A DNA stretch of 58,378 bases, counting the filler, from Bipalium vagum (Eukaryota): assembly GCA_037834085.1 (NCBI GenBank). It is 3 parts of 3 records of this genome, joined end to end, with 100 filler letters (N's around TTAATTAATTAA, not from the genome) between each part and the next. Parts side by side here need not be neighbours in the genome. Positions count along the whole stretch, not along the records: positions 36,561 to 58,378 come from JBBMKC010231621.1; 2 more parts are not named here. One strand, 5' to 3'. The position numbers and the translations under genes were made by a program. Positions 1,935 through 58,378 of the stretch are shown here, piece by piece. The notes under the pieces are model-generated. The model saw only the letters and a program-made list of their open reading frames with translations. It was not told the origin of the DNA and made no database searches. Each line of letters opens with the position of its first letter. Position 1 is the first letter of the stretch.

Positions 1935-1937
<3 letters not shown>

Positions 1938-1995
<58 letters not shown>
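1938..1995. repeat. (ATT)n microsatellite
   Basis: Perfect trinucleotide run; it produces the spurious poly-Ile ORF 1858-2043. Confidence 0.95.
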
Positions 1996-2699
1996 TTAAT
2001 TTTCATATATGATTTAATAATTTTAATTAAAAAATTTAATTAAGTTTAATTTAAAAATTAAAAGGACATTAAAAATATTTGATCCGTTTTAAAATTAAAA
2101 TTAATTTAAATTAAAGATTTAATTAAAAATTTATTTTAAAATTTGATTTATTTTTTTTTTAAAATTTAATTAATTTTTTATCAATTTAATTATTTTTAAT
2201 TAAAAAATTAATTGAGCATAATTTAAAAATTAAGTTAATTTTAAATTAAAAATATTATTATTTCTATTTTAAAATTATCGTTAATTTTAATTTAAGAATT
2301 TAATTAATTTTAATTTTAATTAAAACATTTAATTAGTTTAATTTTAAGAATTTAATTAATTTAAATTTTAAAAATAAAAGCGATAGTGATAAGAATTTGT
2401 GTCATAGTTTCGGTTATTCTAAATAAAATCAAAAGCGTTTCAAAAATAATAAAATTGTTAATAAAAATTATTTTGTTTTAATATTTATCATTTTTTGCAA
2501 ATATTCGATTACCACAAATTTGTTTTAATAAAAACAAATGTATTTTTCTGTCTTCATTTAATACGTTTTTTTCTCTCTTCACAAATCGACAGAAATGTTT
2601 CAGAAGCATCACAAATACATTTCTAATGATAACTAAGAAATTACTTTTACTTTTTCAATTATTATTATTATTATTATTTATTATTATTACTATTACTGT

Positions 2700-4270
2700 C
2701 CTTAAGCGCTCCATAATAAAAGTCATTTACTTTAATTACCCATTATATTTTTAATCTCAATTTTCAAGGAAGGATTTAGGTGCTTTATCTCAAATGATTG
2801 CAATATTATTCCGATAAAAAATGTTGCAAAGAAAAAATAATTTCTTCTTTAAATGAGCTAAAATAAAACCTTTGAAAAAAAAATTGCTTATTTAATTGAT
2901 TTTTTTTAAAATTTAAAAATGATTTTGATTGGTCTGTTGAATGTAAACATTATTTTCTGTTGTCACGTGGTCGCTTCATATGAGTCATTCTCCGACCAGA
3001 TCATCCATCTTTATTGATTTGCTTTTATTATTGAATGTTAATATTTATTTTAACGACACCCGCTTAGAATTTCACTTGAAGATCTTTTTGTTGTGTTCAT
3101 TAATCACTTAAAAACCGTTTAAAGTCAACAAAACATAAGTCAAAGCCGTTAGGGCAAAATATTATCACAGAATGTCTCAATGAAAACAACAAAACATCAG
3201 GCTCTATCGCAAAATCCCAGTCCTCGAAACTCCAAAAGAAGCAATGACAACAGCAGAGCAGGATAAAATAAGATAATCAATATTTTCTGAGAATAAAACT
3301 TGTTTTTTGAAAATTATAATCGTCTTGACACCGACTTTAGGTTAGACTTCTCAAAAACGACCCTCGACCCCTTGGTCGGTATTAGCTACCTAACTTATTC
3401 GGAGCAATCATCAATATCATAAGTGAATCGTGAATTGCTACTTTTACCAAACTTTAATTCTGTTGCCTTTTACCGATTTTCTGTGGTTGCGTTCCAGGAT
3501 TATTTTGGGACCACTTGAAGTACTTTCGCAAAAGCATACCTCTCGATTAAGAGATGTGTATGAAACTGTGTATTAAAAGTCCTTTACTGCGTATTATTAC
3601 TTTTATTATATTTATATTTATATTATGTTTATATTTAACTTATGTATAAATTCTGTTCGGCTGCATAACAAAGCCAGACAGCCTTTTGCGCAACATAATT
3701 AAAAAATAAAATAAAATATAAAATATTAAAGTGCTAATAATAATAATAATTATAAAAAAAATTATAATTTATTAGTTACTCCCTGTGTTCTTGGAGTTGT
3801 GTGGTCGACGCTGAGATATTTATATGGGAATAAGGAATGCTGGCAAATATACGACGATCCTTATAAAAGAGTGTACTGGCTGGAACTATTGTTTCCTACT
3901 CTTACAACCTTGGTAAAGCTTTGAAGAAATCTCTCAAACTAAGATAACTGTATGTAACTGTTCAGGTAAATCTCGCGCTTTTCATAAACATCATTCGAGT
4001 TTTGTTCGTGAAAGCCACTGACAGAAGCAATGGGCTGGTAAATAACAGATATAGGTGCATTAATTATTATAAATAATACTAATAATTATTATCATTATTA
4101 TGAAATGAAAGGACGTTGTTCAAAGCAACCTCTATTCTCGTTGTGGTTTTCGGCATCTATGATGTGATCTTGATTCCCTTGGTTCTCTTGAGTGAGAAGA
4201 TCAATTCAGAATCGTTTGAGATTGTGCAACTTTATTATGAGCACACAATGACGTCATGCCAGGTATAGGT
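2700..4270. mobile_element. Cluster of probable R4/RLE non-LTR retrotransposon 3' fragments flanked by (TAA)n
   Basis: Faint minus-strand remnants (NIAII...KY at ~2800; QPQKI..NRIKVW at ~3480; RHDVI at ~4255), each abutting TAA repeats. Confidence 0.3.
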
Positions 4271-11164: not shown

Positions 11165-11615
11165 ATATTAATACATGATAGAACTCAACGTTATATTTTT
11201 GTGAAATGGAACATAGTCCATTACAATAGTTCTCACATTCAAATTTTTAATAAATCCAATGAAATCGGTATTATAATTATAAAAACTTTCAAAATTAATT
11301 GCAGCAGAACGGTTGCGAAAGAAAATGTTCCCATACTTTTTCATGTATAACATATACTAAGTTACGACTTATTATCCATGTTGCTACTTTTATCGGAATT
11401 TCAGCGGAACTGACATATCCATAACGAGATCTCATGTAGATGTTAAATCCGACTTCGTCGATAAAAATATTCTTTTATTGTCTTTCACTGCTAATAAATC
11501 CGATAACATTAGTGAAACAGTTCGACGCGGTTCAATTACATCAGCACTAACACTTCCTTTGGCAACAGCTTTTAATCTCTTAAATGTGTAATGCAGATTT
11601 TTAATGCAGAGTCCA
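11165..11615 (-). mobile_element. IS630/Tc1-like DDE transposase relic
   Basis: Minus strand: LHYTFKRL, FIDEVGFNIYMRSRYG, IVMDYVPFHK. Confidence 0.65.
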
Positions 11616-11619
11616 TAAA

Positions 11620-12135
11620 GCCAAAATTGTAAAGGATTTCATGACAACGAACCATGTGAATGTCTTAGAATGGCCAGAAAAATCTCCAGATTTGAACATT
11701 GTAGAAGACGTTTGGAAATTAATATCGGACATCGTTTTCGACAGACTTTCATTTCACAAAATGACAGATTTAGAGAAGGCCATAGTGGATAGTATTACAT
11801 ACATCCAAACAAAGAAGATGGATTCAATTTTGGAATTATATAAAGGAATCAAGAAGCGTTTATGTACTGTTCTTCATAAACAAGACAATTTGTGTAATAA
11901 ATGATTTAATTGATTTACTTATGTTTACATCGAGAAATATTTTGTCCTTTTCAAAATTAATATTTCTAATAAGTCAATTTATTATCTCTAAAAATAATTC
12001 ATTCTTAGTTATTTTTGTAAATAATGTAAAACATTACTTTTATCTTCAAGTTCATTCAAAAATATCTTTAATTACAATTAAAATTACCGATTAACATTTC
12101 AAAATAAAAATCGAGAATTAATTTGTCCATAGGTA
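11620..12135 (+). mobile_element. Tc1 transposase C-terminal relic with 3' terminus
   Basis: VLEWPEKSPDLNIVEDVWK (WPxxSPDLNxIExxW). Confidence 0.8.
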
Positions 12136-13221
12136 TATTCGGCGAATTTCATTTCAGATGACATTTCTTTGTCTAGGCATTTCTGTAGATATTTCACTAA
12201 GAAATTAGAATAAAATTATTGGTAAGTATAATTATGACATTAAATTTTACAAATCATTACATTTTAAATTACAATACATTTTACATTTCATTGTAAACAT
12301 TAACTACAATACATAAACATTACAATTAACATGGTAATTAGCCTTTATTAATTGAATTTTAAATTTATTAATCTGCGCTTTAAACCCAGGTTCAATAAAA
12401 AACAATATTTAATATCAGGTCAAAGAATAAGTTTTTCCGTTTTTTAATATCATATATATTTTCCAAACCAAATATGAGTAATTTGCAATTATTGATTTTA
12501 TTTATGAATTAATAAAGGCATTGTTTTTGCCGTTTAAAAAGATTGATGATAATCAAAAATCGATCTAAAATTATTATATATATTCAAAATCGTTATCATT
12601 TTTGCAGACCAAATTCGCAAGCTATCTGAAAACGGTTAAAATGCATCGAGAATGATATTGAAATAATATAATTAATATTGCTTTATTTTAATTATAATTG
12701 TTTTTATTTTCATAATAGCGCCTAAATATGAATATTTAAACAACACACACCAACATATTTTTCAATATAAATGTAGAAATTAATAAATACTAAACAAATG
12801 AGAATTGTACATTTACTTTGTCTCCCACCAAATATGATACCATTGTTTAATAATTATAAACCTAATAAAGAATATTAAAGATAATAATTTTAATTGATTT
12901 TTTAAAATATTTTTTTATATTTCTAAAAGTTGACAGAAAACTCTGTCATTTAGTTTATATTGGAAACCTTAAACTTTTTATGATTAGAAAATATATTTTT
13001 ATATGTAAAGGACGACATATCCCATATCATTTTTCGAACGAGGAGCCTCTCTTAAGAAATCATAATGATTGTTTAATTACTATCAAAATTTATAACAGGT
13101 TGCGGAATGTATAGAGAGGAAAAGATAAATAAAACGTCCAATCAATGGTTATATTTTTGTGGGAGAAACGTAATTATATAATTGGACATATTTCTGGCTG
13201 TAAAATCCAATTCTTCTTCTC

Positions 13222-13981
13222 ATGAAGAGATTAAAGGACCTTTTGATTTTATTATTACATTTTTCTTACCAGGTACGATCCTTGTGTCCAAAGTCTTACA
13301 CTCTTCATACTGGAATTTGCTTTTCTGTAAAGGAGCAATCAGTAAACTTTTGTGAAGCATGTGAGATCTGTTTTACTGAACGAAGTCGCCTAATGACGGG
13401 GAGTGAAATAGAGGTTATTTTGCCCAGCCTTAAATGGCAAGAAAGTTATTGGACAGGTATCACTGACCTTCTGAATGAAAGAAAGAATTCTAGAGACCAC
13501 TGGCTTGAGATTGATGGTTCTTATTTCAAACAAAATCATTTATGGATTTATTCCGATCCAAATGATTATGGAAAAGGCGAGGACTGTACATGTTTGGTGC
13601 AAACAAAGTTATTTGACGATTCCTGTACAAAGAAAATGAAATTCACTTGCGTATATGAAGGGCCGAAAAAATTACCCGTGTCAAGAAAATATGTAAAAGC
13701 CGATAAAGTTCTTTTTAATGACGGAGAAGAAAAGGGATGCTATACAGAACTCGTTACTGCCACAAGTTTGGAGTGCGCCATGAAGTTGATGATTGTTTAC
13801 CTCTTATTTATAGTTGATCTTCATTATTTTCAGTTGTTTTCTTTCTTCAGTCTGTAAATCATTCTATTTCTCTGACTACCACGGGACCGGCTTGTGCGTC
13901 CTGTCGAATTACGTTGACAGTTCCCTATCTTTTCAGTTTAAGAACAGAGAAAATTGGTCACGGTTTTCCATCTTTAGTTAA
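13222..13981 (+). CDS. Secreted C-type lectin domain + C-terminal PAN/apple-like domain protein, 2 exons, ~236 aa
   Basis: Exon 13222-13784: signal peptide, CPxxYxxxxxxCF, FCEACEIC, YWTGITD, WIYSDPNDYGKGEDC, LFDDSC...FTC. 49-nt GT-AG intron 13785-13833. Exon 13834-13981 completes LECAMNCFLSSVCKSFYF...LCVLS (PAN/apple Cys pattern). AATAAA at ~14025. Confidence 0.88.
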
Positions 13982-14099
13982 ATGGCAATATTGACTTGTG
14001 ACCCAACTCTCAATGGTGTTAATTAATAAAACGTTTTCAATGGAGATTGGAAGTTTTCAAGTATTATTAAATGGTTATCATAATAAAACTGCCAGGGAC

Positions 14100-26200: not shown

Positions 26201-29200
26201 TTTTTGTTTTATAAAAAATGTTGCAAATAAAAACTATGATAAAAATAATAATTTGATGATTTTTGCAATTTTTAAATTCATTTACATAAAAATTTTGCCT
26301 AATTTTGTAAACGTGCACCATCTTTATTATTATTATAAAGATTATTATTATTATTATTTATTTTACCAAATAAAAGTAATATTAGGAAATAAAGAATTGT
26401 TACTAATATTTAAATACTATTAAAAAGATTTGTTGATTTTAAAGACCATTAAATACTTTAATTACCCGAGCAGTCCTTAACATCCAGAATCATTGTTTCT
26501 ACGGTTTCCAATCGAGTCCTGGGGTTTCTCGCCAATAGACCAAAATGTACAGCCTTGCACTCATATGTTCCAGCATCCATCATTTGTATGGACTGAATAG
26601 AATAATGTATCTTCGACGTTTCGAGATACATAGCATTGCTGAATATTTTACCGTGATCATTTCCTATTTTTACATTACCAACCTCCGAGGTCTTTAAAAA
26701 AAACAACGTTAAATGAGAAAAATTAATATAAATCGATTTTACTAAATGTTAAAAGTTTTTTTAATGGAGTATCAATAATTATAATTTATTTATTTTCATA
26801 AATTTTAATGTTGAGATAAATTGTTAACATTTGAAAAGTAAAAAGAAATTCATTCTGATGGAATGAAACTCATTGTTGAAGTATATCCATATCATTTTCT
26901 CAAAGAACAACAGTCTTGGATATCTGCCGACGAATTTGAGAAGACACTCACCTGTGAAACTGCTCAGCTGAATGAGGAATGATTTTGGTCCTCTCTTTCT
27001 ACACAATTTCTTTTTCGAACAGAAATTTGAGAGATATTTCCAACAAATCTTTCCTTTTCAGCAAATATTTAATTCTGCAGAAAGTGTATGTGAAATATTT
27101 TTATACTTTATTGATTATTAATAATAAAGGAAATATTTTAGTAGCTTAATCAATTTTTAAATCAATGAATGCCGTTCGGAAATAAGTTCATACGTTTTTA
27201 ATTATAAAATTTCTACAATTTCTTTCACAAGATATTCGTTTGTTTCTTAAGAAACATAATTTATGCGGAAATTCAATTAACAACTTTTGTCCTTGAAAAA
27301 GCACATTTTCGTCAACTTTTGTTACATTAGTTAAAAATAGGATAAAGGTAGTGTGCGTTCAGAGTGAAATAAACCTTTTGAACCACTTATTGGTCCCTAG
27401 TTCAAAAATTTTGGCAAGAACGAAATAATCATTAATCATAAATAGAAATTTTTAAAAATGGACTATTGCAAGACCATTGTCATTTCAGATGAACGAGTTC
27501 AACATATTTTAAGAGAAGACTTCCATTTGGAAAAGTATTTTAAGAGCGGTATCACATACTCTAACGATTCAAAGAAAAGGTCTTTAGGAAGTAAATTTGA
27601 GAACACCATTTGGACATTTTTAATAAAAATAAAACAAATTTCATGTGACATTTTGTAACAATGGACGGATTTAGCACCCTGATTGTAAATTGAAGCGAAG
27701 GCATATGAAGTGTATTTAAGCTTTATGTTCATTTCAAAAGTAGTATAAGAAAGAATATATGGTAAAAAGTTTATATCAATTGTTTTTTATCATGCCAAAA
27801 GTATTTTGAAAGATAGATTAACTTTAAAAAGGAAACACTACTAACTCCGAAAAATATTAAAGGCAAGTAGACCAATTGGATGCAGTCCTTGACGAAAAAT
27901 CACCTGATTTGCAGAATTTTTTTTTTAATCAAGATAATGTACATCAACGGCAAAACGAAAAAATTAAATTATTATTTGCCTGAACCTTAGTTGCAAGATT
28001 TGACTCCAATTGACATACGTTTTCAAAAACCTAAAATGTTTTCTCCCAGAGAAGCGTTTTTTATTAAATAAAGAATTTAGGCAGTCACAGACCAGTATTC
28101 TGCAAACCTTCCCAAATCGAACTTCAAACATTGCATAGAAATATTCAATAATAAAAGCCATCAATAACAATTCCACGTTGTTTCGATAAACTCATAAATC
28201 TGTTCTAAAATATCATATTTGGTTAAAAGGTAAAATCAGGTCGTGAAAGAGAATGTACATTATCCTAATAATAATATAAATTATATTATTTTATTATTAT
28301 TTATATTGATTATTGGATATTGTTAATTATTTTTATTATGATTGGAAAGAAATTGTTTTAAATAAATATTAAAAAATCACGGAAAATTATGTTACAAATA
28401 AATATAATTTTTTGATTCTAATCCGAAATTTTTTAAATTAATGCATGTAAATATCTAAAGACAATAATAAAATAAAATAAAATTTTTAATACAATTGTGA
28501 AATGAAAAATACTTAAGCAAATCAAATAAATAAATAAGATGAAAAATAAAATTATTACTAACGGTTAATAGAGAGTCGTTTAAAGACGGATGTGCCGCAA
28601 TTTTTAATAACGTTGTAAAATAATATCCGTCTGGAGAAACTTTACAAGTGAAATTGAAGGAATCAGCTACGCAAACTTTTGCATTGGGGTTAAAGATAAT
28701 CTGAGCAGCTCTGCCAATGTTTTCTCTGAAATGTAAGGATGATGTACTGAAACTTGATTTTTAACATTAAAATGATTAAAAAAATTAATCTATATAATGA
28801 TCTTCTGTAGGTGAAGAAATGATTTATTATTCAATTGGAATCTTGAAACTTATTAATGGGTCTATTTTAGATATCTAGAGGTATTTACAAAATCAGTTTA
28901 AGGCTGAATTGTTTATGCTTCAGAATTTTTTTGAATACAATAATTTTCTCTCAGCAGAACAGTCCGAAATGGCGAGGAAAACGGTTAGAGGTCACTATGC
29001 TGTTGCAATAATTTTTTTGAGGACATTTTAATGAACAACAAATTGAGAACATGTTCTGACAAGTTATAAAGAAAGTTAGAAGTTGGTCGTTAAAAGGACA
29101 TTAGTATTAATATAATTAATAATAGACATTAGTTATTGATATTAGTGTAAAGAAATTTTTCTATGTAAACGATTAAAATAAATATTAAAAAATCACGGAA

Positions 29201-38825: not shown

Positions 38826-39368
38826 GATGATGTGCACTTAGCCAACAGTTTTAATTTACAATTAGTGTTAAATTCATTACTCTAAATTTATAAAATTTAT
38901 TTTTTAATATTAATTTAATGCTTTGTATACAATAACAATTACCACAAACAAATTTGTTTTTTATCCATTGATTTTAAATAGAGAACTCTATTAATATTAA
39001 ACATTATTTTTTTCAAATTTAGTCAATGATTAGTGTCAGATTTCAAGCTTAATATTTTAATTTTATGATTTTATAAATTTAAATTAAAAATATAATTAAG
39101 TATTTTGAATAAATATACATTTTTTCATATCACTTAAAAACTTGTTATATAATTATTCATCTAGATTTTATATATTTTTAATTGAAAATTAAAATATTTT
39201 AATAAAAATCTTAATTTTTAATTTAGTTAAAAAAACAAAAAAATTTAAACTAGCAAAATAATATTTATGTTTATCTCTTAATTTACCCTTAAAGAGAGTT
39301 TGTTTAAATAATTCGTTTTATTTTAACTATTTTAAAATTTAATTTCTTTTACATTGAAAATTTATTTT

Positions 39369-42156
39369 ATGAGTCATTCTACTATATATGCTGGTGTAAC
39401 ACTTGAAAATTTATCAAAAGATAGTTTTAGTGTAAGTAACATAAAAGTTATTAAAAATGCTGTCATATCTACTGTCAAAGATGAAAATCTGATGTTTATT
39501 AGAATTTCGAGTACAGATTCTAAGTTGAAAATGGCACCCACTGGCTATCCAGTAATTGATATGATAATATTTGATAAATTTATTCATGAGGGGAAAGCAA
39601 CTATAAAACTGCCCAAAAGCTCAGTTCAGGTGTTGATAAATAATTGCCCACCAGCTGATTTAAAATTGTTTATAACTACCCTGAAGGTTAAATTAAACAG
39701 TAATACTCCATCCGTGCAACAGTTGCGTAAAACAAAATCAATTGGTAAATTATTTCCTAGTACTGTTACTGCAATGGACGTGATCAGTCCAATCTGTAAG
39801 TCTGATGTTCGTAAGTTACAGGAAAAAAAACTAGAAAAAGGCTTTAAAGATAGTATGCCAGTAACACCAGACAAGAAGAGAAAAATTATTTTCAATGATG
39901 AAGACTTTATGACACCTCCTAATCGTAAATTAAAACTGGAACATTCTACCTCCACACCAATATCTAATGTTTTGAAGGAATTAAACATACCTAAAGAAAG
40001 CGTGCAAAAATCTGTTTCAGTATTAGATAAAAGTTTGAATGATTCTTTCGAACTTACCCAGTATTTTCAATTATCAAGTGAACAAATCTCAATTATCGAA
40101 AAAGTAAAGCTTGGTCAAAATGTGTTTTTTACTGGATCAGCGGGGACAGGTAAAACCTTTCTGCTTAAAAAAATTATCGGATCGCTTCCACCACAATCAA
40201 CAATAATAACAGCCAGCACTGGAATTGCTGCCAGTATTATTGACGGGTGCACCTTACACAATTTTGCCGGCATTGGATCAGTGATAAAGTCTCTGTCGAC
40301 CTCCATTAGTCTTGTTATGAAAAAACCACAAATTTTATTACAATGGCGGAAGTGTAAACACTTGATTATTGATGAAATTAGTCTGATAAGCGCTGAATTT
40401 TTCGATCATCTTGATCAGATTGGTAGGGCAGTAAGGAACACTCCAAATGAACCTTTTGGAGGTATTCAGATGATAGTGTCCGGAGACTTCTTCCAATTGC
40501 CACCGGTGATGAGAAGAGATTATGATCCAAAGGTATGAATGATATTCTTCATATACTTGAACCATTGTTGCTATATAGTATGAAAGGAAATGGGATTTTT
40601 TTATATTTATCAATAGTTAAGATAATTCTATTTTTTGTTAATAATTACTTAATTTTGTTCAGTAAAATTTTTGTTTAATAAAATTTATTAATTCGATCTT
40701 CTCAGACCAATTACAAATTCGCTTTTCAATCCAAAGTTTGGAACGAAGCATTTCCAGAAATAATGTTTCTCACCCAAGTCAAGCGTCAGTCCGATAAGGA
40801 GTTCGTAAAATTGCTTTCGAGTATAAGAATTGGTCTTGTTCCAGACTGGGCTGATAAGAGACTGAAAGCTACCTCGAAACAGGTGATCGAGAAAAACGGT
40901 GTCATCCCAACCAAGCTTTGCACCCACAAAATCGACGTGGAAGAGAAAAATAGTGATCACATAGAATCGTTAAAGGGTAAGTTTTTTGAAGGGTATAGAT
41001 AATGTTTCTTACGTTAAGGCAACGTTAACATTTTTAAAACCACTCTTGATATCATTTTATTTTGTTATTAATTTATATTTACTGATTTTTTTTTAATTTG
41101 ACAAATTTTGTTACAAAACCATTTAAAATATGTAATTCTCTCTAAACCAGTTATTAATTAATAATAATAGTAATTACATTATAATTAATAATTAGTTAAT
41201 TATATTAAAAATCGATAAATATTTTTTTTGAAATTCTCAAATCGATTAAGAAAAATAATAAATTTATTATTAAATTTGATTGATAATAAACCATCAATAG
41301 ATATATTTTCTATATTCGTTTTTATATCTTGAAGATTGACAACTGAACTAATTTGTACTTGGTTGCTGTCGGCATACGTAAATTGTTTCTGTTGAAAGTC
41401 TGAGGCTTTTATTTGTTTTCTTTTGGTTTTTAATTTCGTTCAAATGTTTACTTGAATTAGATTAAACAATTATGAGCACAATTGATATTTTGTTTTGATC
41501 CTTGATCTGTAGGCGAGGCCGTTGTCTTCACAGCTGTGGACTCTGTACCTGACAAAGAACATTATATGCGTGATATCTGCCAAGCCGATCAGGAAGTAAC
41601 CTTGAAAATCGGTGCCCAGGTAAGCGTCTTTTTTTGCTATTTAAAATATTTCACTTTCTTCAGGTAATGCTGATAAAAAATATCGACTTGAAAAACGGCC
41701 TGGCAAACGGAGCTCGTGGAGTTGTGGTTGAATTCAAATTTATCTCTCAAAAACGATTCCCTGTTGTCCGATTCGCATCTGGCAAGACATTCTTGATAAC
41801 ACCAGAGCTGTTTACCGTTGCGATCAATGTCGGGGGTAACAAAATCGTTGTCGTCCGAAAGCAGGTGCCATTGAAGTTAGCCTATGCACTTTCCATTCAC
41901 AAAAGTCAGGGAATGACTCTGGATTGTGTCGACTTGTATTTGTCTAAGGTTCGTTAACTTGTACCCATTTTTCTTTTTTATCTTCCTTACTGTTTTATAG
42001 AGCTTTGAGAGTGGTCAAGCATATGTTGCGTTGAGCAGATGCAAATCCATCCATTCGATGCGAGTAATTAATTGGCAAAAACACTGTGTCAAGGTGGACA
42101 GAGATGTGGTTAATTTCTACAAAAAGTACCAACCCATTGAAGAATTTTATGAATGA
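39369..42156 (+). CDS. PIF1: ATP-dependent 5'-3' DNA helicase PIF1 (cellular type with N-terminal PINT/PH-like domain), 5 exons, ~660 aa
   Basis: Exons 39369-40532, 40706-40976, 41513-41619, 41664-41948 and 42001-42156, all GT-AG and in phase. Motifs: FFTGSAGTGKT (Walker A), TASTGIAA, GCTLHNFAGIG, LIIDEISLI, PFGGIQMIVSGDFFQLPPV, LTQVKRQSD, LKIGAQVMLIKN, GLANGARGVV, RKQVPLKLAYALSIHKSQGMTLD, FESGQAYVALSR. N-terminal FIHEGKATIKL...NCPP is typical of metazoan PIF1 rather than a Helitron helicase. Confidence 0.97.
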
Positions 42157-42899: not shown

Positions 42900-44030
42900 T
42901 AATTATTTTTTTTATAGGTTTCTATTTTACTTTAGAATATAATGAGTAAATAGCAAATATGTTTTACAATAAGAGTCAGAAAGGACGAAGGCAACGTAAA
43001 TCAGACAAGAAAAACAACAAACTTATTGTTGATATTCGATCAAGAATAGTGTCCAATTATCAGAATGGAAATACAATTGCAGAATACGTGATGTTACCTG
43101 TTTCAACTATCAGAAATGTCATAAATATTTTAAATGGCTCTGGTCGGACAGAACCATTAAAAAGGGGCTCAATGTGTAAAAAAGTAACACTTGAAGTAGC
43201 AGAACATATTCTGTCTATGATTGATGAAGATGCAACTTTAAACGAATTTCCAAATTAATTTTTGAAATATTCCAAGTTAAGTTATCATAAACAATACTTT
43301 GAATGACTTTCATTATTCATTTAAAAAGTTACAAAATAGTCCAGCTCATAGAAATACTGAAAAAACCATAGCAAGTACTTTTTTTTTACCTATCAATATG
43401 AACATTACATAGTAGATTATTCATTGGTATTACTTCTGTTCTGGCAGTTCCAAATATCAGAAGCAGAAATATATGTATGCTGCGCTATGTCAAAGTATTT
43501 TGTAATACTTTAAAGTATCACTTTTACTATTCAACACAAGTTCTTTCTTGGGTTCTGCGGAAGATTTTTTAAGATTTCTTGATGATCTTAATTACAAGAA
43601 ATTTGTGCTTATTATGGATAATGTATCATTCATAAAAGTCAAACGGCTACTGACTTCATCGAGCGAAATGAAAAAATATTTGCATTCTTACTCCCTTATT
43701 CTCCGTTTTTCAACCTCTCAATTTTCGAAGTGGAAGAATTATGCCCGCATACAAGCTCTGGGCACGGGAGATTTGCTATTAGCTAATATGGAAGAAGGAC
43801 TTAATACAAGTACAGAAGAGGACTGCGATGGATTCTGCAGAAATATGAAAAAACATATTAGTTTATCATTAAATAAAGTTGAAATTACTGTCAAATCAGT
43901 AATTAAATTATTGGATTGTTTTAGTACTTGATTTAAGTATTTTTTGTTAAAAAATTATACTAAATTGAAGTTTAAAAAACTAAATTAATGTTTAAGATAA
44001 CTAAATTGAGATGAAAAACCTTTATGTCAA
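42900..44030 (+). mobile_element. IS630/Tc1-like transposon relic (same group as 11165-11615)
   Basis: HTH LPVSTIRNVINILNGSGRTEPLKRG, DEDATL, FHYSFKKL...RNTEKT, LIMDNVSF, FSKWKNY, DCDGF.RNM. Confidence 0.75.
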
Positions 44031-48430: not shown

Positions 48431-51400
48431 TTACGGGACATCAATAAAATCGAAATCATCTTGCTCTGAATCACTGCTTACGAGGTTTAACGAATGATCT
48501 TTAGAATATCATTCAACAAGGTTTAACAGATTAAAAGATATCTCACCATTATTAATTATCCTCAGTTGATCGAACTTCCGAACACATTCCAAAGCTATCC
48601 AACTGAGTCTATACAATGATTCCAATTCCTTTTGACTATTTTCGAATTTTTTCATTTTCTAAATCAAGTTAAAGATGGCTTTAATTAGAACCAATATAAT
48701 CATCAGAAATTAAAGCAAAATAGAGCACAAATATTTTTAAATCTGGAGAAAACCAAAATTAATTTAACCTGAAAATTATTTAAGATACTTGTAAACGTCG
48801 ATTAAGAAATTCTGGGCTATTTGGGCGTGCTGCAGTTAAAATCCAACGGTTAAGAAAAAAAAGAATCTTATCTTATATCAGTATGAGAATACAAAAATTA
48901 ATCATTAAAAAATTGGAAAAATTTTCTATGGTTTAAAAAGACTAAATTTGAAATTTTTAGATCCAAAAGAAAAGCAGAGTTTATGATGGACCAGTGCCAA
49001 CAGTAAAGCATGGAGGTAGATGGGTACTTATATATGGTTGTTTTGGGAACAATAAAGTAGGAAACTTGATCAAAATCAACGGAGTTCTGAAAAGTGAACA
49101 ATACAAAGGTATTTTAGTTCATCATTCTGTTCCGACTGGGCTGAGTTTAATTGATCAAAATCTTATTTTCCAAAAAGATAACTGTGTAAAACCGAGTTGA
49201 ATAAAAAAACGTAAATATTTTTGAAGTCATGAAATACCCAGCTAAAGTAATATTTTTAATGAAAATAATGTATATTTTTAAATAATATTGGAAACTTTAT
49301 TTGTTTTAAGTACACAAGTTTTATTTATTGAATAAAATTGCCTTCAGTGTCAATTACAGTTTCAAAAAGGCTTCTGAAAAGCTTACAAGTCGCGATCAAA
49401 TGATTTTTGTTCATATTTATCATAGTCAAACTTATAGAAGCCCATAATGAATCTTTGGTATTATGAGGATGTTTGTTCGTCTCCTTCTCTACAGCGCCTC
49501 ATACAAAATAGTCCAAAGGATTTAAGTCGGGTGACCTAGGTGGCCATCAGTTTGGAGTGACATGGTCATTAAAATTTAGCGATAGCCGTTTTTGTGTTTT
49601 CATGCTGTATGGCAGGGAGCTGAGTCTTGTTGGAACAAAAAAGGGCAACTTTTTCAACCCATTGCTTCAAATATGCATCCAGACACTCGATATAAAGAGA
49701 TTCATTAATTCTAAGTCCCTGTGCAAAGAAATACGGAGGCATAACATGACCTTCGTTGCTCACAACACCCAATATCATTAAAGATGATGGAAACTTGGTG
49801 TGCATAACATTAGGGACCTCAGAAGCACAGCCATCGATCGTTCCTCCTGTTAACCTTTTGATCTTGAGTAAAAATATTTTCATCAGAAAAGAACCATAGC
49901 ATGTTTGGATGATCAGGATACTTGATTTTGTTTAAAAAACACTTCGAGCGGATTAAAGGATTTTCTTTGCTTTTTGCCGATACAAAATGTCTTCTTCTCA
50001 TGACGTAGGACTTGCATTTTAAATCATTGTGTAACGTTAGTCTTACTATTGACTCAGAAACCGATAGTCGATGAGCAATTTCTCTCATTGATGTTCTGGG
50101 ACTTTCATGAACAACATCCTGGCTTTTTGAACAAAATTAACATTTCTGACAATGCCTGAACGCGAGGAATTTGTTTTTCTTTTAGATATAGGGGAAACAT
50201 TTCGATCAGATGCTAAACATTCCTTTCTAATTTTATTGACAAACGATCTGACCACATTAAAAAATTTCTAGGTCACTGTGTCCGGCGGCTAGTGCAACAA
50301 TAACTGCATGTCATTTCATTTCTTGTGTTATTTCAAAAGTTATCTCTTCCATTTCTAAATTAAAAAATAATTATTTAATGTTGTATCAATAAATATTGCA
50401 AATCAATTTTAACGCCACTAAAAAATATCATGATATATTTTAACAAATTTTGCCATCAAATAGCTGACGCACCATGTATTACAAAAAGCCTGGAGCAAAA
50501 TCGAAACGATTACATTGAATAAACTGCCAAAGAGAAAGTTTCGTGTGTTCAAAGACCAAAAAAAGAGGATATATCGATGAAAAATTTAATTGTTAATGTG
50601 TTTTGTGATCACTATTTTGATTAAATTGTTAAAAAGTTATTAAAAGAAAATTTCTATAAAATGAATGTTTACTAAGTTTTTTTCGATGCTTTGTTAAAGA
50701 AAATTTATTAATTTCTTGATAACATATTAAAATATATTATCTATCTGCTAAATAGATTTTTCTTAATTATTATTATTAATTAATATAAATAATTCTATGG
50801 AATCATCAACTGAGCCAAAAATTTAGATTTAGTCTCCTAGAAAATGAGCTTGAAATTTGGTGGGCATTATAAAAGTAGTGAGTCTTTGTTTTGAAAGGAA
50901 AAAAGAAAGCAAACTTTGATAATATTGTTCAAGAATGGAACAGAGCGTTTTTGAAGCACTGCGATTTCGTCCTTCAATGTTCGTAGTAAATCGGTATTGT
51001 TAGAATTTTCATATATTTCAATAGTCATGTTTTCCAGAGACAAATTGACGGATACTTCGTGTGTCATTTTGCGAGAGACTTTGCTGCTCGGCCCAGAAAA
51101 ATCAAATGGAACGTCTAGTCCATCGTCAATTCCTACAATTAAACAATAATCAAAATTATTTCAGAAAATAAAACCTGGAAACAAAATTTTTTCATTATCC
51201 ACACAATTCTCAGTCGACGAGGATTTTGGTAACCCGGTGTTAATATCATTGACGTCAGGGATCAATATATTGAAGCAGTTTTCAATAGTATTGATAGAAG
51301 AAATGATGAGCAATTTATTATCTTAAAAGATCACGAAAAACAATACTGAACTAATAATAATACAGAATACTCAAAATACCTTTAAAAACATCTACCAGAT

Positions 51401-54400
51401 GTTGGTAATCACGTTTTCTTTCACATTCTATAGCTATTTTCTTCACCCGAGCTTCTTTTTTCTTGTTTTTCAACATTTTTTCCGCATTGTTTACATCTTC
51501 GCGAAATTTAGATCGGAGAAAGTTTAGGCAGAACTCAATAAGAGGCAAATCTTTTCCATAATTCTCATTCCAGTTCACAATGATAGATATTACAACATGC
51601 TTTAATTTCGTCTCATCGGATTCCGATTTTCGACCATTGAATATTGCGATTAATTTGACCATCGATTTCTAGAAGAAAAGTACACCTAAATCAATCAAAA
51701 AACAGTTTATATTGTTATATTTCGATGAAATTTTATATATTAATTTATTTTCTTCCGGATTCGTTCCTATTTTCAAAATCAATTTGAAATTTTTTAAAAA
51801 TTCATTGAGTTTAATGAATATATGGATATGAACAATTTAAAGTACCAATAAGACAATATTCCATCGTTTAAAACGTGGAATATATCTTATCTCTTTCAAA
51901 TATTGTTAGAAAAATTAATATTATGTTAACTAACATAATTAAAAATATAAATACTCTAAAGTCTCAAAGATATTCGTCGTATTGTACTAAATAAATTATT
52001 ATATTTATATCCCACTTTAATGAAAACAAACGGTTTTTCCATATTTTAATAATTAAGTCCCCTTAGCTAAGTTTCAGTCTTTTTTGATTAGTTCCCGGTC
52101 TAATAAATCATAACTTTCTTTAAGTTAAATATCCATCACCTCAAAAGAGAGAGCTTAATCTTTCCTGAACTCGTTTTTTCTATATCCATTTATAAGAAAT
52201 GGTTTATATATTGCACTTTAACAATTTAAACCAGCAAATATCAGCAGATTCAAGAATCCAGTTAAACCACTAGAAATAGTACAATTTAAAATCTTTATTT
52301 TTATAAAGATCCTTACGTTCATACTAATGTGGGACCCAGAACTGTCAAAAAACCAGAAAAATTAAGTTAGCAGAAAATATGGAATTAATCAACTTTATGA
52401 ATTGATCCACGTTTTAAAGGAATTTAGTACCCTCTTTTGAACAAATAGATTCATCTTTTCCTTTGATTATTACTGTTCAATAAAGTCTTTTTTTTCAGAA
52501 TCAGGTGCAGGATAGATTCAAGTTGTTCGAACCTTCAATCAATTAGCGGAAGAAAATGCAATTTTCTTTGTATCATCTTTTTCAGTGGTGGATTTGATGT
52601 GCTCCTCCGTAAAATGAAGATCTCATCAAAATTATATATATTTTCGATTTGAATATCGAATTCAACAATTACAACTTTAATTGATTGATGAAAATATATG
52701 CTCTCTTGATTAATCAATAATTACAAAGTACAGAAATCCTATTACCTTTTGTATTGTAAATAAATTTCTTTCAGAAAACATTAAAGAATCTTTTTTTGAT
52801 GCTTTGAGGTGAAACAACTCTTCAAAGATTTCAAGATGTCAGGTCTCATAACTGTTTAACTTTGAAGACAATAATTTTCTATTCTCAGTTTAACCATTCT
52901 TTGAGGACCTTATGGTCGATCATTCCCAATGCTGTTATTTATTTTACATTCAGCTATAGTCGATTTTTTATATTTCATCTAAAAAGGTAAAATAAGTAAA
53001 AAAAAATACAGTGAAACCTGTTAATTTTGGAACCTGCTACAGTTGATCCTTTTATTTAAAAACAGACAAAATTAAATAATGACTTTTGTTTTCATGAACC
53101 CATTATCATTTTGGCACCTCTATATTTTTGGCAAATTTTTCGGTCCTAATGACATTGGTAATTTTCACTGTATTTAAATTTTTAAAAATTAATAAAATCC
53201 CCACTGTCTGTTTTTAATGCTGGAAAAAATAAATGTTCATATTAATTCAGATTTTAGAGTATATTCAATTATCGTTTATATTTAATTGCATTCATCTTGT
53301 GATGTATCTTGCAACGATATTATTTTAAAAAATAATCCATTACATACTTTTAATAATAATATCTAATTCTATTTATAAGCATCTAATTTAATATCAAATA
53401 AGTACGATTAAAATGGTACTTTTAAAATCATTGGTTTCCTTTCAGGACACCAAATAGAAAAGGTAAATTAGTTACAGAAATTTAGCAACTATAAGACTAG
53501 TTTTAATTTTGCAAAACCTATGGGTTTTAGTTATCAAATCCTTATACATAAGATGGTCCCCATATATAAGGCGACATTAAATATTTTTTCATTTATTATA
53601 AATTTGTTTTAAATGAACACGACAATCATATTCTGCGGAAACAACATTGTAAGTTGTTGAACAAAATAACAATGCTATTGCTATGCGAGAATTTGGAATG
53701 AGTGAAGTTAATGTGCGATGATGGAAAATAGAAAAAGATGTATCTAAATCCAAGAGATAAACACGCTCGAAGAGGACGAGTTGCATTTAGGCCCGACCTG
53801 GAACAAGATTTGAAGCAATGGGTATTAGAAATCCGCTATGTAATCAGAACAGATTTTAATTTTTAAACGATAATTATTAAAAAATGTGTGGTCTTTTATT
53901 TGGAAATTCTGTCTTGCTTATTTATTACTTCATGCAATAATCAATTTAGGGAACTCATAGGCCTATGAGGTCATGTTATCATAGACTCAAATCAAATTTA
54001 ATCCTAGAATTTAAGATATTAATTTCTATTCCTAAAACAGAATATTTACTATAATTTTTAAAATAGTGAGATTGAAATGTTCTGGCAGTTTCTTTTAATA
54101 CTTGATCTTTTATTAAAACCAAATTATAATTATTATTTCTTCTTCACACTGATCAAAAATGTATCAAACTGTTTACAATATCACGATTTTATTTTATTAA
54201 ATAAATAATTGATTTCAACTGAATTTCAATTCAAATCAAAATTCTTGCTTTATGATTTAATTTTTATTTTAATTGACGAATTATGAATAATATCATTAAA
54301 AAACTTCACTAATTTTCACAAATGATCAATTTTTCCTGAGATTGTCATTGTAGATGGCAAATTTTAAGTTCAGCAGAATAAAAAATTCTAAATAAAGAAT

Positions 54401-55173
54401 AATTCCACAAATATTAACGTAAAAATCAATGATTTCGGAATTTTTTCAAATGAGAAAATCATTCCCGTGACAGCCAAAACATTTTAAATCTTAAGAATAT
54501 TTTCGTAGCCTTCAGGAACTGTCTCAGAGAATGTTGAAGCTGTGAATTCACACAATCTTAAAGTGAGACTCAAGTCAAGCAAAAAATTTGAAAGCTCCCT
54601 TGAAATGTATCTTACAGCTTTATCTTCTGTGAATAATTAATTAAGTTGTTTAAAATATAATAAACACTTACTGACGAGCTTAGATCATAAAACTGCTCAA
54701 AACCAGGTCACAAATATATCCAATTATATTTAATTGTTTTTTTAAGAATATTTTTGATATTAATTTGAACATGACAAGAATCATTTTGATTATTTTACGA
54801 TAAATTAAAATGATAAAAAATAACACATGACCTCACCATAATAATAAATTAAAATTTTTTAAGTTAGTTACAAAATATACCTGTAAATTTTTTAAAAACG
54901 GATTTCTGAATTCTGGAATTAAAATGAAGAATCTATCAATTAACTCAAATAATTTCATTTGAAAAAATGTTTTTTGAGACAATAACATGTTATTGACAGA
55001 ATGTAATAAACATTTTAGTGAATCTGGGTTTTTCCTGCATTATATGTAATCATATAATGTTGTTTCATAACTTACAATAGATTATTAATCAAATCATTGT
55101 ATACATCTTCATCTATTTCATATTTATTTTTCTTCTTAATTACTTTATCCAAGCTATTCTGTATTGCATTCAT
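48431..55173 (-). CDS. UVSSA: UV-stimulated scaffold protein A-like (VHS-like N-terminus, helical middle region, acidic TFIIH-binding motif), 7 exons, ~361 aa, apparently C-terminally truncated
   Basis: Phase-compatible exons 55173-55076, 55034-54881, 51668-51380, 51321-51175, 51132-50915, 48658-48547 and 48498-48431. The peptides FELIDRFFILIPEFRNPFLKNLQ, IVNWNENYGKDLPLIEFCLNFLR, IENCFNILIP, IEIYENSNNTDLLRTLKD and DSEQDDFDFIDVP follow the order of recalled UVSSA motifs (FRMLVVSNFQ, WNEKFG...HFLR, ESCFRLLVP, ExEDN, DFVEVP). Confidence 0.8.
48740..50660 (+). mobile_element. Tc1 relic split by a nested element, in UVSSA intron 5
   Basis: Left part: KRRLRNSGLFGRAA, PTVKHGGRWVLIYGCF, FQKDN. Right part after 50478: LQKAWSKI...RGYIDE (Tc1 C-terminus). 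Confidence 0.7.
49240..50476 (-). mobile_element. DD37D (maT)-type Tc1/mariner element nested in the Tc1 relic
   Basis: WFFSDE.IFTQDQKVNRRNDRW, TKFPSSLMILGVVSNEGHVMPPYFF, QQDSAPCH, WPPRSPDLNPLDY; 5' end TA-CATGGTG (degenerate CAGGGTG). Confidence 0.8.
52060..52990 (-). mobile_element. pogo/Tigger relic
   Basis: IENIYNFDE (NxDETG) remnant; otherwise degraded. Confidence 0.45.
53009..53170. mobile_element. pogo/Tigger-type MITE, 162 bp
   Basis: TA-CAGTGAAA ... TTTCACTG-TA: inverted termini with TA target duplication on both sides. Confidence 0.8.
53550..53850 (+). mobile_element. pogo relic (BrkDBD + CENP-B HTH fragments)
   Basis: NAIAMREFGMSEVNVR*W and PDLEQDLKQWVLEIR. Confidence 0.6.
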
Positions 55174-55405
55174 AAATTATAAATACTTCTATTGAGTTTC
55201 TGTAAATAATTTAAATAGAACTTAAAACTAGGTTTGAATAAACAAAACATTAGAAAATAATACGTACAATAATTTTAAATTTTTTTATTTTTCACTTAAA
55301 ATAGTTAATGTTTTTTATTTTAATAATATTTAGTTCTTTCAGATTTAATACAAAGAGAAAAAGGTTCTAGAAATAAAATATAAATATATGGTTCAACTTC
55401 GATAT

Positions 55406-56001
55406 CACTGCAGGTCTTTTGCCAAGATCTATGTAATTTTTAAGAATTCAGTACTTCTTATGTTATACAAATTTTTATAATCCAGACTTAGGGTGAGTTT
55501 TTAATTAGCGGAGTTTTTTATGAGAGCGCAGCGACCTTAATAGCAACCTATTTCGTTAAATATAAAACACTTTTTATCTTAGCAATAGATAACTTAGGAT
55601 ACATTTCTTGTAATATTTGAAATGTTGTGCTGGATCGATCTAACACCTTAATGAAATTTTTGAATAGACCTTAATTTAATGGGCAAAGTAGAAAGGATGA
55701 CATTTTGATGAGAAATTAGAGGCTCAAACTGAACATTGTGATTATTAGGTATACTAATTGAACGTATTGTTCATTCACCTTTATTATAATAATCACGTCT
55801 AGTTCTAATGATCCACAAACACAAAAAGCAATTTTATTTAGTGAAATGTTTATAAATCCCTGTTTGTGCACAATTACTTTTAAATCTTGGCATACTCAAC
55901 ACATAGCGTAATACTTTGGTACCCCCATTTTTTCTTCACTTACTCATATGCATGCCTCCCGACACACATGCTCGTTCTTTCGTCAAAAACGTGTTTACCA
56001 A
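55406..56001 (-). mobile_element. Chapaev3 (CMC) DNA transposon relic, interrupted at 56001
   Basis: Minus-strand fragments CQDLKVI, CFLCLW.IRTRRDYY and NVQFEPLISHQNVILSTLPIKLRSIQKFIKVLD...YPKLSIAKIK match recalled Chapaev3 motifs (CGDLKV, CFLCLWDSR, LPPLHIKLGLMKxFVKA, FPxLSxAKIKEG). CACTG terminus at 55406. Confidence 0.7.
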
Positions 56002-56139
56002 AGTAGTACACTATGTCGTATAAAGATAAAATAACTAAAATATTACTAAAAAATCACTAAAAGAATAACTAAAAAAATCAATAAAAAATAGTAAAATAAA
56101 TCAAAAAATTTAAAACTGAAAAATAAAATTTTTTCTTAA

Positions 56140-56472
56140 AAAATAGAAACCAAAAGAAATGATTTAAATAACCTATCAAATCTAGAATTAAATAAAATTG
56201 AAAATAAATTTCCACAAAATAGATATTATGAAATATTTTTAAGAGCTAAAAATTTTAATTTAGAAGAAAAAGATTTAAAATCTTATTTTAAAGATTTATT
56301 ATGGTTAATAGATAATTGCACATTTGAACCATATAAAAATAAAATAAAAGAACAACAAAAAAATATGAATGATATATTTATTTATAATTACACGAAATTA
56401 GATGAAAATCTAAGGGTGGAAATATTAAAATTTTATCAAAACAAATTAATAAAATTTTTAAATAAAAATTGA
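56140..56472 (+). pseudogene. 110-codon open frame of unknown function, probable Polinton accessory gene with lost start codon
   Basis: Stop-free frame KIETKRNDLNNL...KDLLWLIDNCTFEPY...KLIKFLNKN* in very AT-rich DNA. It begins AAAAA ATA GAA, which could derive from ATG. Confidence 0.4.
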
Positions 56473-56474
56473 CA

Positions 56475-56609
56475 GTGGAAAAATGGTATTGTGAAATTTG
56501 TGACAAAAATATTTCAAAATATAATAAATCAAAAAATTTAAAGACAAACGGACATTTGAAAAATAAAACTAAAGGTACTAATAAAAGTACTAATGATAAT
56601 GATTTCTAA
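56475..56609 (+). pseudogene. Degenerate single C2H2 (matrin/U1-type) zinc finger ORF inside the Polinton-like element
   Basis: VEKWYCEICDKNISKYNKSKNLKTNGHLK: C-x2-C-x11-(H>N)-x5-H. The start codon appears mutated (ACA GTG GAA). Confidence 0.55.
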
Positions 56610-56880
56610 TTTTTTTTACCAAAGTTGGTGGTGACATCCAATCACAAATTACAAATAATAAATTTTTAAATAAATTTACAACTGGAAAATACCCAGGTGA
56701 ATTAAATTTAAAATCTTTAAATCCTTTAAATAAAACAATTTTTTTATATTTATCTTTATTGATTAAAAACATACGATTTCAATAAATTCCTTGGGATAAA
56801 AAGCTTATGTAAACAACTGATTTTTATTGAAAATCGAAATTTTCTGTGTTTATAATTTGAATACATATATAGTAAAGTAA

Positions 56881-56902
56881 ATAGATAGATAGATAGATAG
56901 AT
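56881..56902. repeat. (GATA)n microsatellite
   Basis: atagatagatagatagatagat. Confidence 0.9.
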
Positions 56903-57306
56903 ATATTAAGATAATATGAATATTTATATTAAAGAAATACAAATTGTCTTAAAATTTTAAATTAATAAAAATAATAATAAATAAAGTAAAATAATTATAA
57001 AATTAAAAATATTAAAAATTAAAAAATAAAAAAACTAAAAATAAATTATTAAATGTGATTGATCAACAAGAAGAATGGCGTTCTTGCTTCTTGCAAATTG
57101 AAATCAGTTCTATAAATAAGACATTACAACAACGCCGTACTATTCGAAATATAAAAAGTATTGTTTAAACATTTGATAGTGTAAAATAATAGAAATAAAA
57201 ATGTATAGGAGAGTATAAGAAGGTTAGAGAAATATCCAAACATAGGAAAAATATCCCAAAATTCAAAAATTCATAAATTTTAAAAAATCAATTTTAATTT
57301 AAAAAA

Positions 57307-57762
57307 ATGAATAAGGAAATCACAGAGGAAAAATTAAAAAATATTATCGAAATAGGTAAACCTAAATACATCATTTATAATGGAGAAAAATACTATCTAT
57401 CCAAGAAAATATTTAATCAAGTTAAAGAACAAATAAATGAAAATGAAAAAATTAAACAAGGTAGTGTACTTCCATTGATTCCAATTCTTGGAGCAATATT
57501 TGCAGGATTAGAAGCAGCTGGTGGAGTTGCTGGGAGTATTGCAACAACTGTTCAAAAAGTAAAAGAAACTCGAAAAAATAATACTGAGAAAGAAAAAATA
57601 GAATTGGAAAAAAAGAAATTAGAAATGGAAGTTGAAAAATTGAAACCTAAAAATGAACAAAAATTTGGAGCTGGACTTTACTTCGATCCATATTTTGGAA
57701 AAGGGTTGAGAAAAACAATTTTTAATATTGGGAATACCCCATCTAACAACTCAACAAATTAA
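57307..57762 (+). CDS. Polinton/adintovirus protein resembling the adenovirus core protein X (mu) precursor C-terminal hydrophobic segment
   Basis: QGSVLPLIPILGAIFAGLEAAGGVAGSIA resembles adenoviral pX GGILPLLIPLIAAAIGAVPGIA. It is followed by a charged coiled coil and FGAGLYFDPYFGKGL, with GxG motifs like adenain cleavage sites. Confidence 0.65.
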   Translation: MNKEITEEKLKNIIEIGKPKYIIYNGEKYYLSKKIFNQVKEQINENEKIKQGSVLPLIPILGAIFAGLEAAGGVAGSIATTVQKVKETRKNNTEKEKIELEKKKLEMEVEKLKPKNEQKFGAGLYFDPYFGKGLRKTIFNIGNTPSNNSTN

Positions 57763-58215
57763 AAATATAATTGTTAGTGTATCTATAACAATAAATAATT
57801 TTTTAGATGTGTAAACATAAGAAGTTGGGGGTAAATATCTCGATTTCTATTTATAAATAATAAAAAATGGGGCCATGCTTTATCAATTTAATTGAGAACC
57901 CCAATGACAACTACAATTTTTAAAAAAAATGTTATTGTATTTATACAACAAATATATTTTTTTATTTACAATCATAAAAGGTGGAGTACTGATACAACTT
58001 AACAAATCAAAATAAATAATTGTTATTGTAACTATACAATAAATGTGTTTTTAGTTACAATTATAAAAGATGGATTGCTGAAAACCAACCATCTAATAAC
58101 TTAACAAATGAAAAAAAATTGTGGTATACCTGTAGTGTTCCATATTCTATTTTTCATTACTAAAAATAGGGTTATTACAAATAACCTCATAAAAAATCAA
58201 ATTTTATTTTAAACA

Positions 58216-58378
58216 ATGGCGAATACAAATTTCATTACTGAAAATTGTCAAGCTGTAAATTTTAAAACATGTTTACAATGTTTTCAAATAAAAACTATTT
58301 CTGAATTTTATTCAAAAATGAATAAATGTAAAAATTGTCATAAATTTAATGTAACACAACATAGAAAGATTCCAGAAA
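58216..58378 (+). CDS. Cys4 zinc-binding (KxCxxC..K...F..CxxC) protein, 3'-truncated by the window edge
   Basis: MANTNFITENCQAVNFKTCLQCFQIKTISEFYSKMNKCKNCHK. This treble-clef-like pattern is common in large DNA virus, phage and Polinton ORFs. Confidence 0.55.
   Translation, partial: MANTNFITENCQAVNFKTCLQCFQIKTISEFYSKMNKCKNCHKFNVTQHRKIPE

Follow-up and report, generated by a model that had tools for sequence, protein, structure and literature searches.

The systems closest to the element described here are the Polintons or Mavericks of animals and the adintoviruses. Intact Mavericks, in the account of Barreat and Katzourakis (2021, PMC8097293), have terminal inverted repeats (TIRs) of 46-1,447 bp, end motifs of (AGT)2, (AG)3 or (AC)3A as well as 6-bp duplications of the target site (TSDs), and degraded copies make up 96% of the Mavericks of vertebrates. 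Polintons are known in planarians, being silenced by piRNAs in Schmidtea (PMC8532177), and are described as expanded in Dugesia (bioRxiv 10.64898/2025.12.11.693146); terminal palindromes flank the TIRs of some virophages and of some Polinton-like viruses (PLVs), where they may prime replication or stem from accidental annealing (bioRxiv 10.64898/2026.07.28.741278). The element in question lies at the right end of a 58,378-nucleotide stretch of the Bipalium vagum genome (GenBank assembly GCA_037834085.1; three parts joined by filler, the last of them, from position 36,561 onwards, coming from JBBMKC010231621.1), and this whole stretch is referred to below as the window. The element is very probably a deleted Polinton relic, and it works like a non-autonomous Polinton derivative; it is neither an autonomous Polinton, there being no integrase in the part seen, nor an Alpha-adintovirus PLA2X module. 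Non-autonomous Polintons were reportedly described by Kapitonov and Jurka in 2006.

Gene remains and their intact relatives

The evidence for a Polinton origin comes from an open reading frame (ORF) at 57307-57762, for which 128 relatives were found at E<=0.001, and from the genes that lie beside those relatives. A profile scan of metagenome contigs gave nine loci with a pX-like gene, and scans of viral contigs gave no locus. Domains were scanned in 25 ORFs from six of the nine loci: Pox_A32 is above the cut-off in five of the six, L008 encodes a double jelly-roll (DJR) capsid protein (E 8e-48), and L004 and L008 have weak Peptidase_C5 (adenain) matches under the cut-off. In the remaining loci a Walker-A ORF adjoins the pX-like gene, and pPolB was not seen among the ORFs of the nine short loci.

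Locus L002 is intact over 4 kb and contains, in order, a 438-aa ORF (296-1609), a 242-aa ORF, the pX-like gene and the A32 ATPase. The 438-aa ORF encodes a C2H2 zinc finger fused to a parvovirus-type phospholipase A2 (PLA2; E 1.5e-9) and an rve integrase (E 1.6e-11), and is referred to as the ZnF-PLA2-rve fusion; L002 and the near-identical L001 tie as best match to the window ORF. The window copy has the same order, ZnF-(PLA2-rve) followed by pX-like, with 41% identity in the zinc finger and 38% in the pX-like ORF. Behind the zinc finger, 56624-56710 aligns in a different frame to the next 30 residues of the fusion (0/2000 shuffles equal it; plain BLASTP missed the piece, 56624-56737, and a word-index protein search with this frame found nothing), and the match to the fusion ends where the PLA2 domain of L002 starts. 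The pX-like ORF falls short of its relatives by ~40 residues at the C terminus, and homology stops at ~57711-57744. Because the window keeps only the first ~60 codons of the fusion and a shortened pX-like gene, the copy is internally deleted; the distance from zinc finger to pX-like gene is ~0.83 kb as against ~2.1 kb in L002. The window copy departs from L002 in its breaks at 56738 and ~57711 and in an extra 110-codon frame in front, for which Pfam, Atlas, PHROGs and comparison with L002 gave no usable hit.

Six-frame alignments of the gaps in the window body (72 frame tests) gave no PLA2 core, integrase, ATPase or counterpart of the next L002 ORF. Two apparent integrase matches in the gaps (3/200 shuffles each, among the 72 tests) were rejected on inspection as low-complexity noise. 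There is no A32 ATPase, adenain protease or DJR capsid gene in the 2.4 kb of the element within the window, and no trace in 56017-58378 of the rve integrase of an autonomous Polinton.

Repetition was assessed from contigs of run X1, which is from the same organism (share 0.63) and possibly from the source sample, and from those of a second organism, X2. The comparison covered 52000-56940, a span that stops short of the pX-like ORF, and the tables hold the best 40 of 389 variants, 15 of 125 joints and 12 of 1,093 loose ends. Summed contig depth reaches 10,000-38,000 at 56125-56784, a quantity that is not a copy number and for which 17-30 is typical of single-copy contigs, and 65 contigs of X1 and two of X2 depart from the window sequence at 56738. 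The element body is clearly a high-copy repeat in the same organism, with hundreds of copies or more.

The locus thus has the marks of a relic: Polinton gene remains in Polinton order, deleted core genes and multiple copies. The preliminary description had proposed a Polinton/adintovirus-like virus inserted into a Chapaev3 transposon, and had set linkage of Polinton core genes to homologues of its ORFs as part of the test; finding the A32 ATPase, the DJR capsid gene (L008) and rve (L002) beside relatives of the pX-like ORF supports the Polinton origin, and the window holds the decayed copy of a repeat, not an inserted virus genome. Of the two explanations offered for its gene content, an internally deleted, non-autonomous lineage is supported by the two pieces in L002 order, the absent core genes and the high copy number, and an atypical gene order is not needed, since L002 shows this order too, complete with the genes that are missing here. 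The virion-core-like gene placed ~1.3 kb from 56002 corresponds to the pX-like ORF.

This ORF and its relatives share a conserved hydrophobic G-G-x-L-P block. Adeno_PX matches were obtained for seven of 12 relatives scanned, all under the cut-off (E 0.002-0.07; 13.5-21.8 bits), and the window ORF itself has no match to Adeno_PX (PF05829, Pfam cut-off 25); since neither the ORF nor the scanned relatives reach the cut-off, 'pX-like' is used as a label only. Atlas places the ORF near Preplasmiviricota clusters (0.93) and a 19% Adeno_PX cluster (0.91), a lead only at this recognition value. Among PDB sequences nothing fell under E 0.05 (9lr9_E PX, E 0.24), a word-index protein search gave nothing, and the AlphaFold model is weak (pTM 0.37), with 0 Foldseek matches to BFVD at E<=0.001. 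One relative, P0085 (434 aa), seems by eye to carry an adenain protease in its N-terminal part, fused to the pX-like domain; Pfam gave no protease match for it.

The left end of the element

A motif search confirms AGTAGT at 56002-56007, directly preceded by TACCAA at 55996-56001, which the preliminary description had taken as an element terminus and its TSD. G+C content falls from 32% to 16% across this junction and the + strand becomes A-rich, with short intronless frames as had been described; these are not closely spaced, and stretches of 570 bp (56738-57306) and of 450 bp (57763-58215) contain no recognisable gene. The maximum likelihood change point is 56020 (56017-56028 within 2 log-likelihood units), and 56002 scores 3.8 units worse. 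By itself AGTAGT, with seven copies on the + strand of the window, is weak evidence of a terminus. A true Polinton end at 56002, with TACCAA as a 6-bp duplication within the transposase and an empty allele accounting for a contig break at 56002, would nevertheless draw on the commonest end motif of vertebrate Mavericks (according to PMC8097293), placed ~20 bp before the composition switch and followed by subterminal-type repeats and an integrase-type gene. The window's own zero-difference contig does cover 55397-56002 and then stop, which fits either an empty allele or other copies sharing 55973 onward.

The same junction is spanned by an inverted repeat (55901-55932 and 55985-56016) with 32-bp arms (81% identity; core 19/21), forming an imperfect hairpin of ~116 bp. 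None of 500 shuffles reaches even 17/21, and among 544 window tiles the only others scoring 19/21 have <10% GC. Both TACCAA and AGTAGT have mirror counterparts 80 bp to the left, that of TACCAA at 55916-55921, and the left arm reads AGTATT opposite AGTAGT. At 55899 the window reads ACACATA, one letter off the (AC)3A end motif of Mavericks. Counts of the hairpin patterns are circular, the patterns having been built from the two hits themselves.

Contigs of other copies point to the same place. At 55935 and 55941, 29 and 34 contigs of X1 carry another letter, at a summed depth of 1,100-1,270 compared with 43 over the almost single-copy transposase relic at 55630-55794; their distances from the contig ends (38 and 44) both lead to 55897, so that ~30 contigs of other copies align from about there, and a bin mean depth of 387 roughly fits an edge at 55900-55910. 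Among the listed joints, three contigs, each at about single-copy depth, connect 56016 with 56085 or with 56119 after matching the window over at least 30 letters, and therefore share at least 15 letters to the left of AGTAGT before entering the element body; in the single contig with in-between letters listed, the next two letters carry the hairpin pairing out to 55899. A terminus at 56002 is thus doubtful: AGTAGT is internal to the inverted repeat, and in the same organism other copies share letters to the left of AGTAGT and align from ~55897. That TACCAA is common to other contigs and mirrored argues against its being a site-specific duplication. If the end were at AGTAGT, the inverted repeat would have to be due to chance or to a later fold-back, the three contigs would be artefacts and the multi-copy edge at ~55897 a separate matter, and the lack of transposase homology at 55949-56001 would still have to be accounted for; we regard such an end as distinctly unlikely. 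A 6-bp end motif beside a composition switch can mislead.

We tentatively prefer, at somewhat below an even chance, one copy of a high-copy, internally deleted Polinton-derived repeat whose left end is at ~55900, with the hairpin, rather than at 56002. Such a copy would be unable to move itself and would have relied for its copying, in trans, on an autonomous Polinton in the same genome that supplied integrase and pPolB. The hairpin may represent an older AGTAGT-type end plus its flank, folded back once; the folded-back end could then have been carried along by a subfamily numbering some tens of copies, and one of these would have landed in, or been joined to, a dead Chapaev3 transposase near 55900. 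TACCAA would be part of the unit, and the predicted 6-bp TSD would be the hexamer just left of 55899-55901.

The minus-strand Chapaev3 transposase relic to the left was identified by eye, with no computed E-value, against the Garfield_BM transposase in the supplement (Fig S1) of PMC4079192. Two ungapped blocks, identical at 20/58 (55845-55672) and 15/36 (55667-55560) positions, substantiate the preliminary assignment, and a third (55895-55846) is identical at 3/16, including D-x-K of the G-D-F-K motif; the blocks are colinear with Garfield_BM, in agreement with a transposase of the C(2)C and LH motif type, the LH motif being decayed. Word-index protein searches, and tblastn against plasmids and phages, returned nothing, and no database search put a name to the relic. 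At 34-42% identity by eye these blocks resemble the Chapaev3 transposons Garfield and Merrow as presented in PMC4079192; unlike them, only the middle ~340 bp remain, and clean termini and the TWA duplication are missing. The relic had been said to stop dead at 56001. Solid homology instead stops at ~55895 and a weaker match may extend to 55948, where Y-E-x-V-K, together with K-Y at 55916, keeps to within 4 nt of the spacing in Garfield, provided that one frame shift is accepted; at 55949-56001 no Garfield match was recognisable by eye in any frame. A second decayed Chapaev3-type relic lies at 14020-14430 (-) (tblastn E 0.004 with the 55.6-kb relic) and resembles the block after the LH motif; this relic (14.0-14.5 kb) is too decayed to place the boundary of the first.

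Several observations weigh against an end at the hairpin. The spacing just described points to native transposase code in the left arm, and the coincidence needed otherwise is, by a rough estimate, improbable to very improbable. The fold z-score of the hairpin region is only modest (-2.3; 4/200 shuffles). The copy evidence consists of summary tables of short contigs from one run, in which just three listed contigs connect the hairpin with the body, patchy contig cover can arise from the 80% threshold, and none of the listed contigs is zero-difference right of 56002. The junction could be a product of repair and no natural end, a reading favoured by the spacing of Y-E-x-V-K and K-Y. Chapaev3 code would run to ~55950; when a broken end became attached to DNA of Polinton origin, nearby transposase code would have served as the template for the right arm, in inverted orientation, and the composite would later have been duplicated a few times. 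AGTAGT would then be a one-letter accident of K-Y codons, in keeping with AGTATT in the left arm, and the composition changes at 56017-56028, directly after the right arm. Repair gives no account of ~30 contigs sharing an edge at the left-arm start while the transposase further left is nearly single-copy, nor of 55949-55984, which has no transposase match, and we consider it unlikely, if slightly less so than an end at 56002.

Candidate CAC...GTG termini occur at 55406, 55900 and 56009. The hairpin might thus be an independent miniature inverted-repeat transposable element (MITE) of ~116-118 bp (Chapaev/CMC type), beginning with CAC at 55900, or CACTATGT at 56009 might be the 5' end of a Chapaev3-type non-autonomous element carrying Polinton scraps; CACTATGT is identical to the first 8 bases of Merrow_LF, and in the mirror arm A-TTA, the Chapaev3 target context, stands before it (both by the descriptions in PMC4079192). 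None of the three candidates has a clean TWA duplication, and there is none on either side of the hairpin in the window; the arms pair at least 9 bases past what Chapaev3 ends explain, and hairpin and body occur together in at least three other contigs. Both versions are improbable. That the two arms are two outward-facing Chapaev3 ends was rejected, the pairing running 9 bases beyond the ends and target context.

The region right of 56002 could finally be in part an assembly mosaic of repeat copies at a scaffold end, its deletions not being real. Copy number is very high, the window contains 314 N, and the element lies at the window edge; because no zero-difference contig is listed there, the joins at 56738 and ~57711 could each unite different copies. 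The contig listing drops some records, so this lack proves nothing, and the stops, frame shift and letters that vary from most other copies resemble one aged copy. A mosaic seems the least probable of these explanations, and all the others share a common core, which is a deleted Polinton relic. The weights given to all readings are our judgement and were not computed.

Features of the window

The coordinates of the junction region and element body are listed below. The tandem repeats next to the hairpin vary in length between copies. A 29-bp motif that precedes the ATGs at 57307 and 58216 is a candidate gene-start signal of the element. The open-ended ORF at the right edge matched PHROGs at E 0.0007 (unknown function), 0.014 (HNH) and 0.061 (endonuclease VII). 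No long inverted partner for a terminal repeat is present within the window.

Features of the Bipalium vagum window between 55073 and 58378
Feature	Position	Strand	Evidence
Predicted first exon of UVSSA-like host gene (neighbour only)	55073-55173	-	Sequence; ATG 55173-55171
Separate multi-copy repeat patch	55390-55491		At 55390, 17 contigs end whose flanks differ; 27 depart at 55426; summed depth ~1,400-3,100
Chapaev3-type transposase, decayed, middle part, with stops and frame shifts	55560-55895 (weaker match possibly to 55948)	-	By-eye comparison with Garfield_BM
Imperfect hairpin, left arm; repeated unit probably begins here (~55897-55901)	55901-55932	+	Inverted-repeat search, contig edges
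Right arm of hairpin, holding TACCAA and AGTAGT	55985-56016	+	Inverted-repeat search, contig joints
A-rich tandem repeats (11/22/35-bp periods), subterminal-type DNA	56028-56109	+	TRF; joints 56016>56085 and 56016>56119
110-codon open frame, high-copy	56140-56472	+	Summed depth 10,000-21,000
C2H2-type zinc-finger piece, N terminus of ZnF-PLA2-rve fusion	56478-56591	+	41% over 37 aa to L002, pairwise E 8e-6; 0/2000 shuffles
Next piece of fusion gene, just before PLA2 domain; breaks off at 56738	56624-56737	+	Shuffle-tested alignment to L002 residues 1-75
AT-rich stretch with (ATAG)n	56738-57280		TRF; six-frame alignments with shuffles
29-bp motif ending in ATG, 86% repeat at 58190-58218	57281-57309	+	Direct-repeat search
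pX-like ORF (Polinton core/membrane-active type), 151 aa	57307-57762	+	128 relatives, best E 3.6e-24; 38% to L002, E 8e-21
Direct repeats of ~90-100 bp, four degenerate copies, apparently non-coding	57720-58180		5/6 pairwise alignments score above each of 500 shuffles
Open-ended ORF with CxxC...CxxC zinc ribbon	58216-58378	+	Weak likeness to HNH/endonuclease VII N termini

The UVSSA start codon had been placed ~830 bp away, and the predicted ATG indeed lies 829 bp from 56002. The first exon is without a UVSSA match in the Pfam scan; later exons match UVSSA_N weakly (E 0.038 and 0.004) and colinearly (profile positions 32-86, then 104-140). Within this gene region is a Tc1/mariner-type transposase relic at 49569-50136 (-), with others, all recognised by eye, at 24124-24453, 11605-11904 and 42950-43931. 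The repeat patch between UVSSA and the Chapaev3 relic contains a 37-bp multi-copy motif (55390-55426) with a sharp left edge, also matched in X2 (55388-55426, four differences), which is probably the end of another transposon, and an 18/21 inverted repeat at 53026-53235, in a multi-copy patch of depth ~2,200, is probably a MITE. Elsewhere in the window are a host gene for a PIF1 helicase that bears a PH domain at its N terminus (39336-41957, +; Pfam PIF1 E 3e-39), receptor tyrosine kinase exons with Ig-like pieces (22342-23055 and 26458-28760, both -; FGFR-like by eye, Pfam kinase E 0.0006), and two related frames, C-type lectin-like by eye (13204-13857 and 16217-16546, both +), the first without a Pfam match at E 0.1.

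Comparison with known elements

The element resembles animal Polintons/Mavericks and the adintoviruses (Alpha/Mayetiola class with PLA2X), as characterised by Starrett et al. (2021, PMC8502044), in its intronless AT-rich ORFs, pX-like gene and PLA2-type domain, and in the linkage of its ORF relatives to an A32/FtsK ATPase, adenain-like protease, DJR capsid and rve integrase; it is unlike adintoviruses in having lost all core genes in the part seen. The PLA2 in that account bears its pX domain C-terminally, as PLA2X, whereas the PLA2 of L002 lies between zinc finger and rve and the pX-like ORF stands alone in both L002 and the window, so that the arrangement is not that of an Alpha adintovirus. 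With the vertebrate Mavericks surveyed in PMC8097293, among which decayed copies are the rule, the window copy shares its decay; it differs in that its AGT motif is internal to a hairpin common to copies and in that no TIR or TSD was seen in the window. A palindrome at the extreme end, as proposed here, recalls the Halocafeteria endogenous virophages and PLV subtype 4 (bioRxiv 10.64898/2026.07.28.741278, as far as described there), in which it flanks the TIR. Those, however, are complete protist elements with 52-nt palindromes and mostly non-pPolB replication genes, unlike the imperfect 116-bp hairpin with its 52-nt loop in a decayed animal copy.

The locus is an ordinary one: a repeat of Polinton origin, now decayed, amid dead transposons. 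Less usual is the ZnF-PLA2-rve fusion, which is found in L002 and which the parent lineage appears to carry. No PLA2-rve fusion was met in the published Polinton literature within a limited search (including the main accounts in PMC3671162, PMC5803895, PMC11071296 and bioRxiv 10.1101/2023.08.22.554363), and supplementary maps may already show one. A broader proposal, which we put forward as rather doubtful, is that an animal Polinton lineage with such a fusion, combining membrane escape and integration, spawned a non-autonomous subfamily that ends in, and was amplified from, a fold-back hairpin instead of an AGT/AG repeat. The fusion itself would tie an entry enzyme to the integrase and predicts that the integrase is packaged in the virion. 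If copies truly start with the hairpin, they would represent, in an animal, elements of Polinton type with palindromic ends, on which the ability of such ends to prime copying could be tested.

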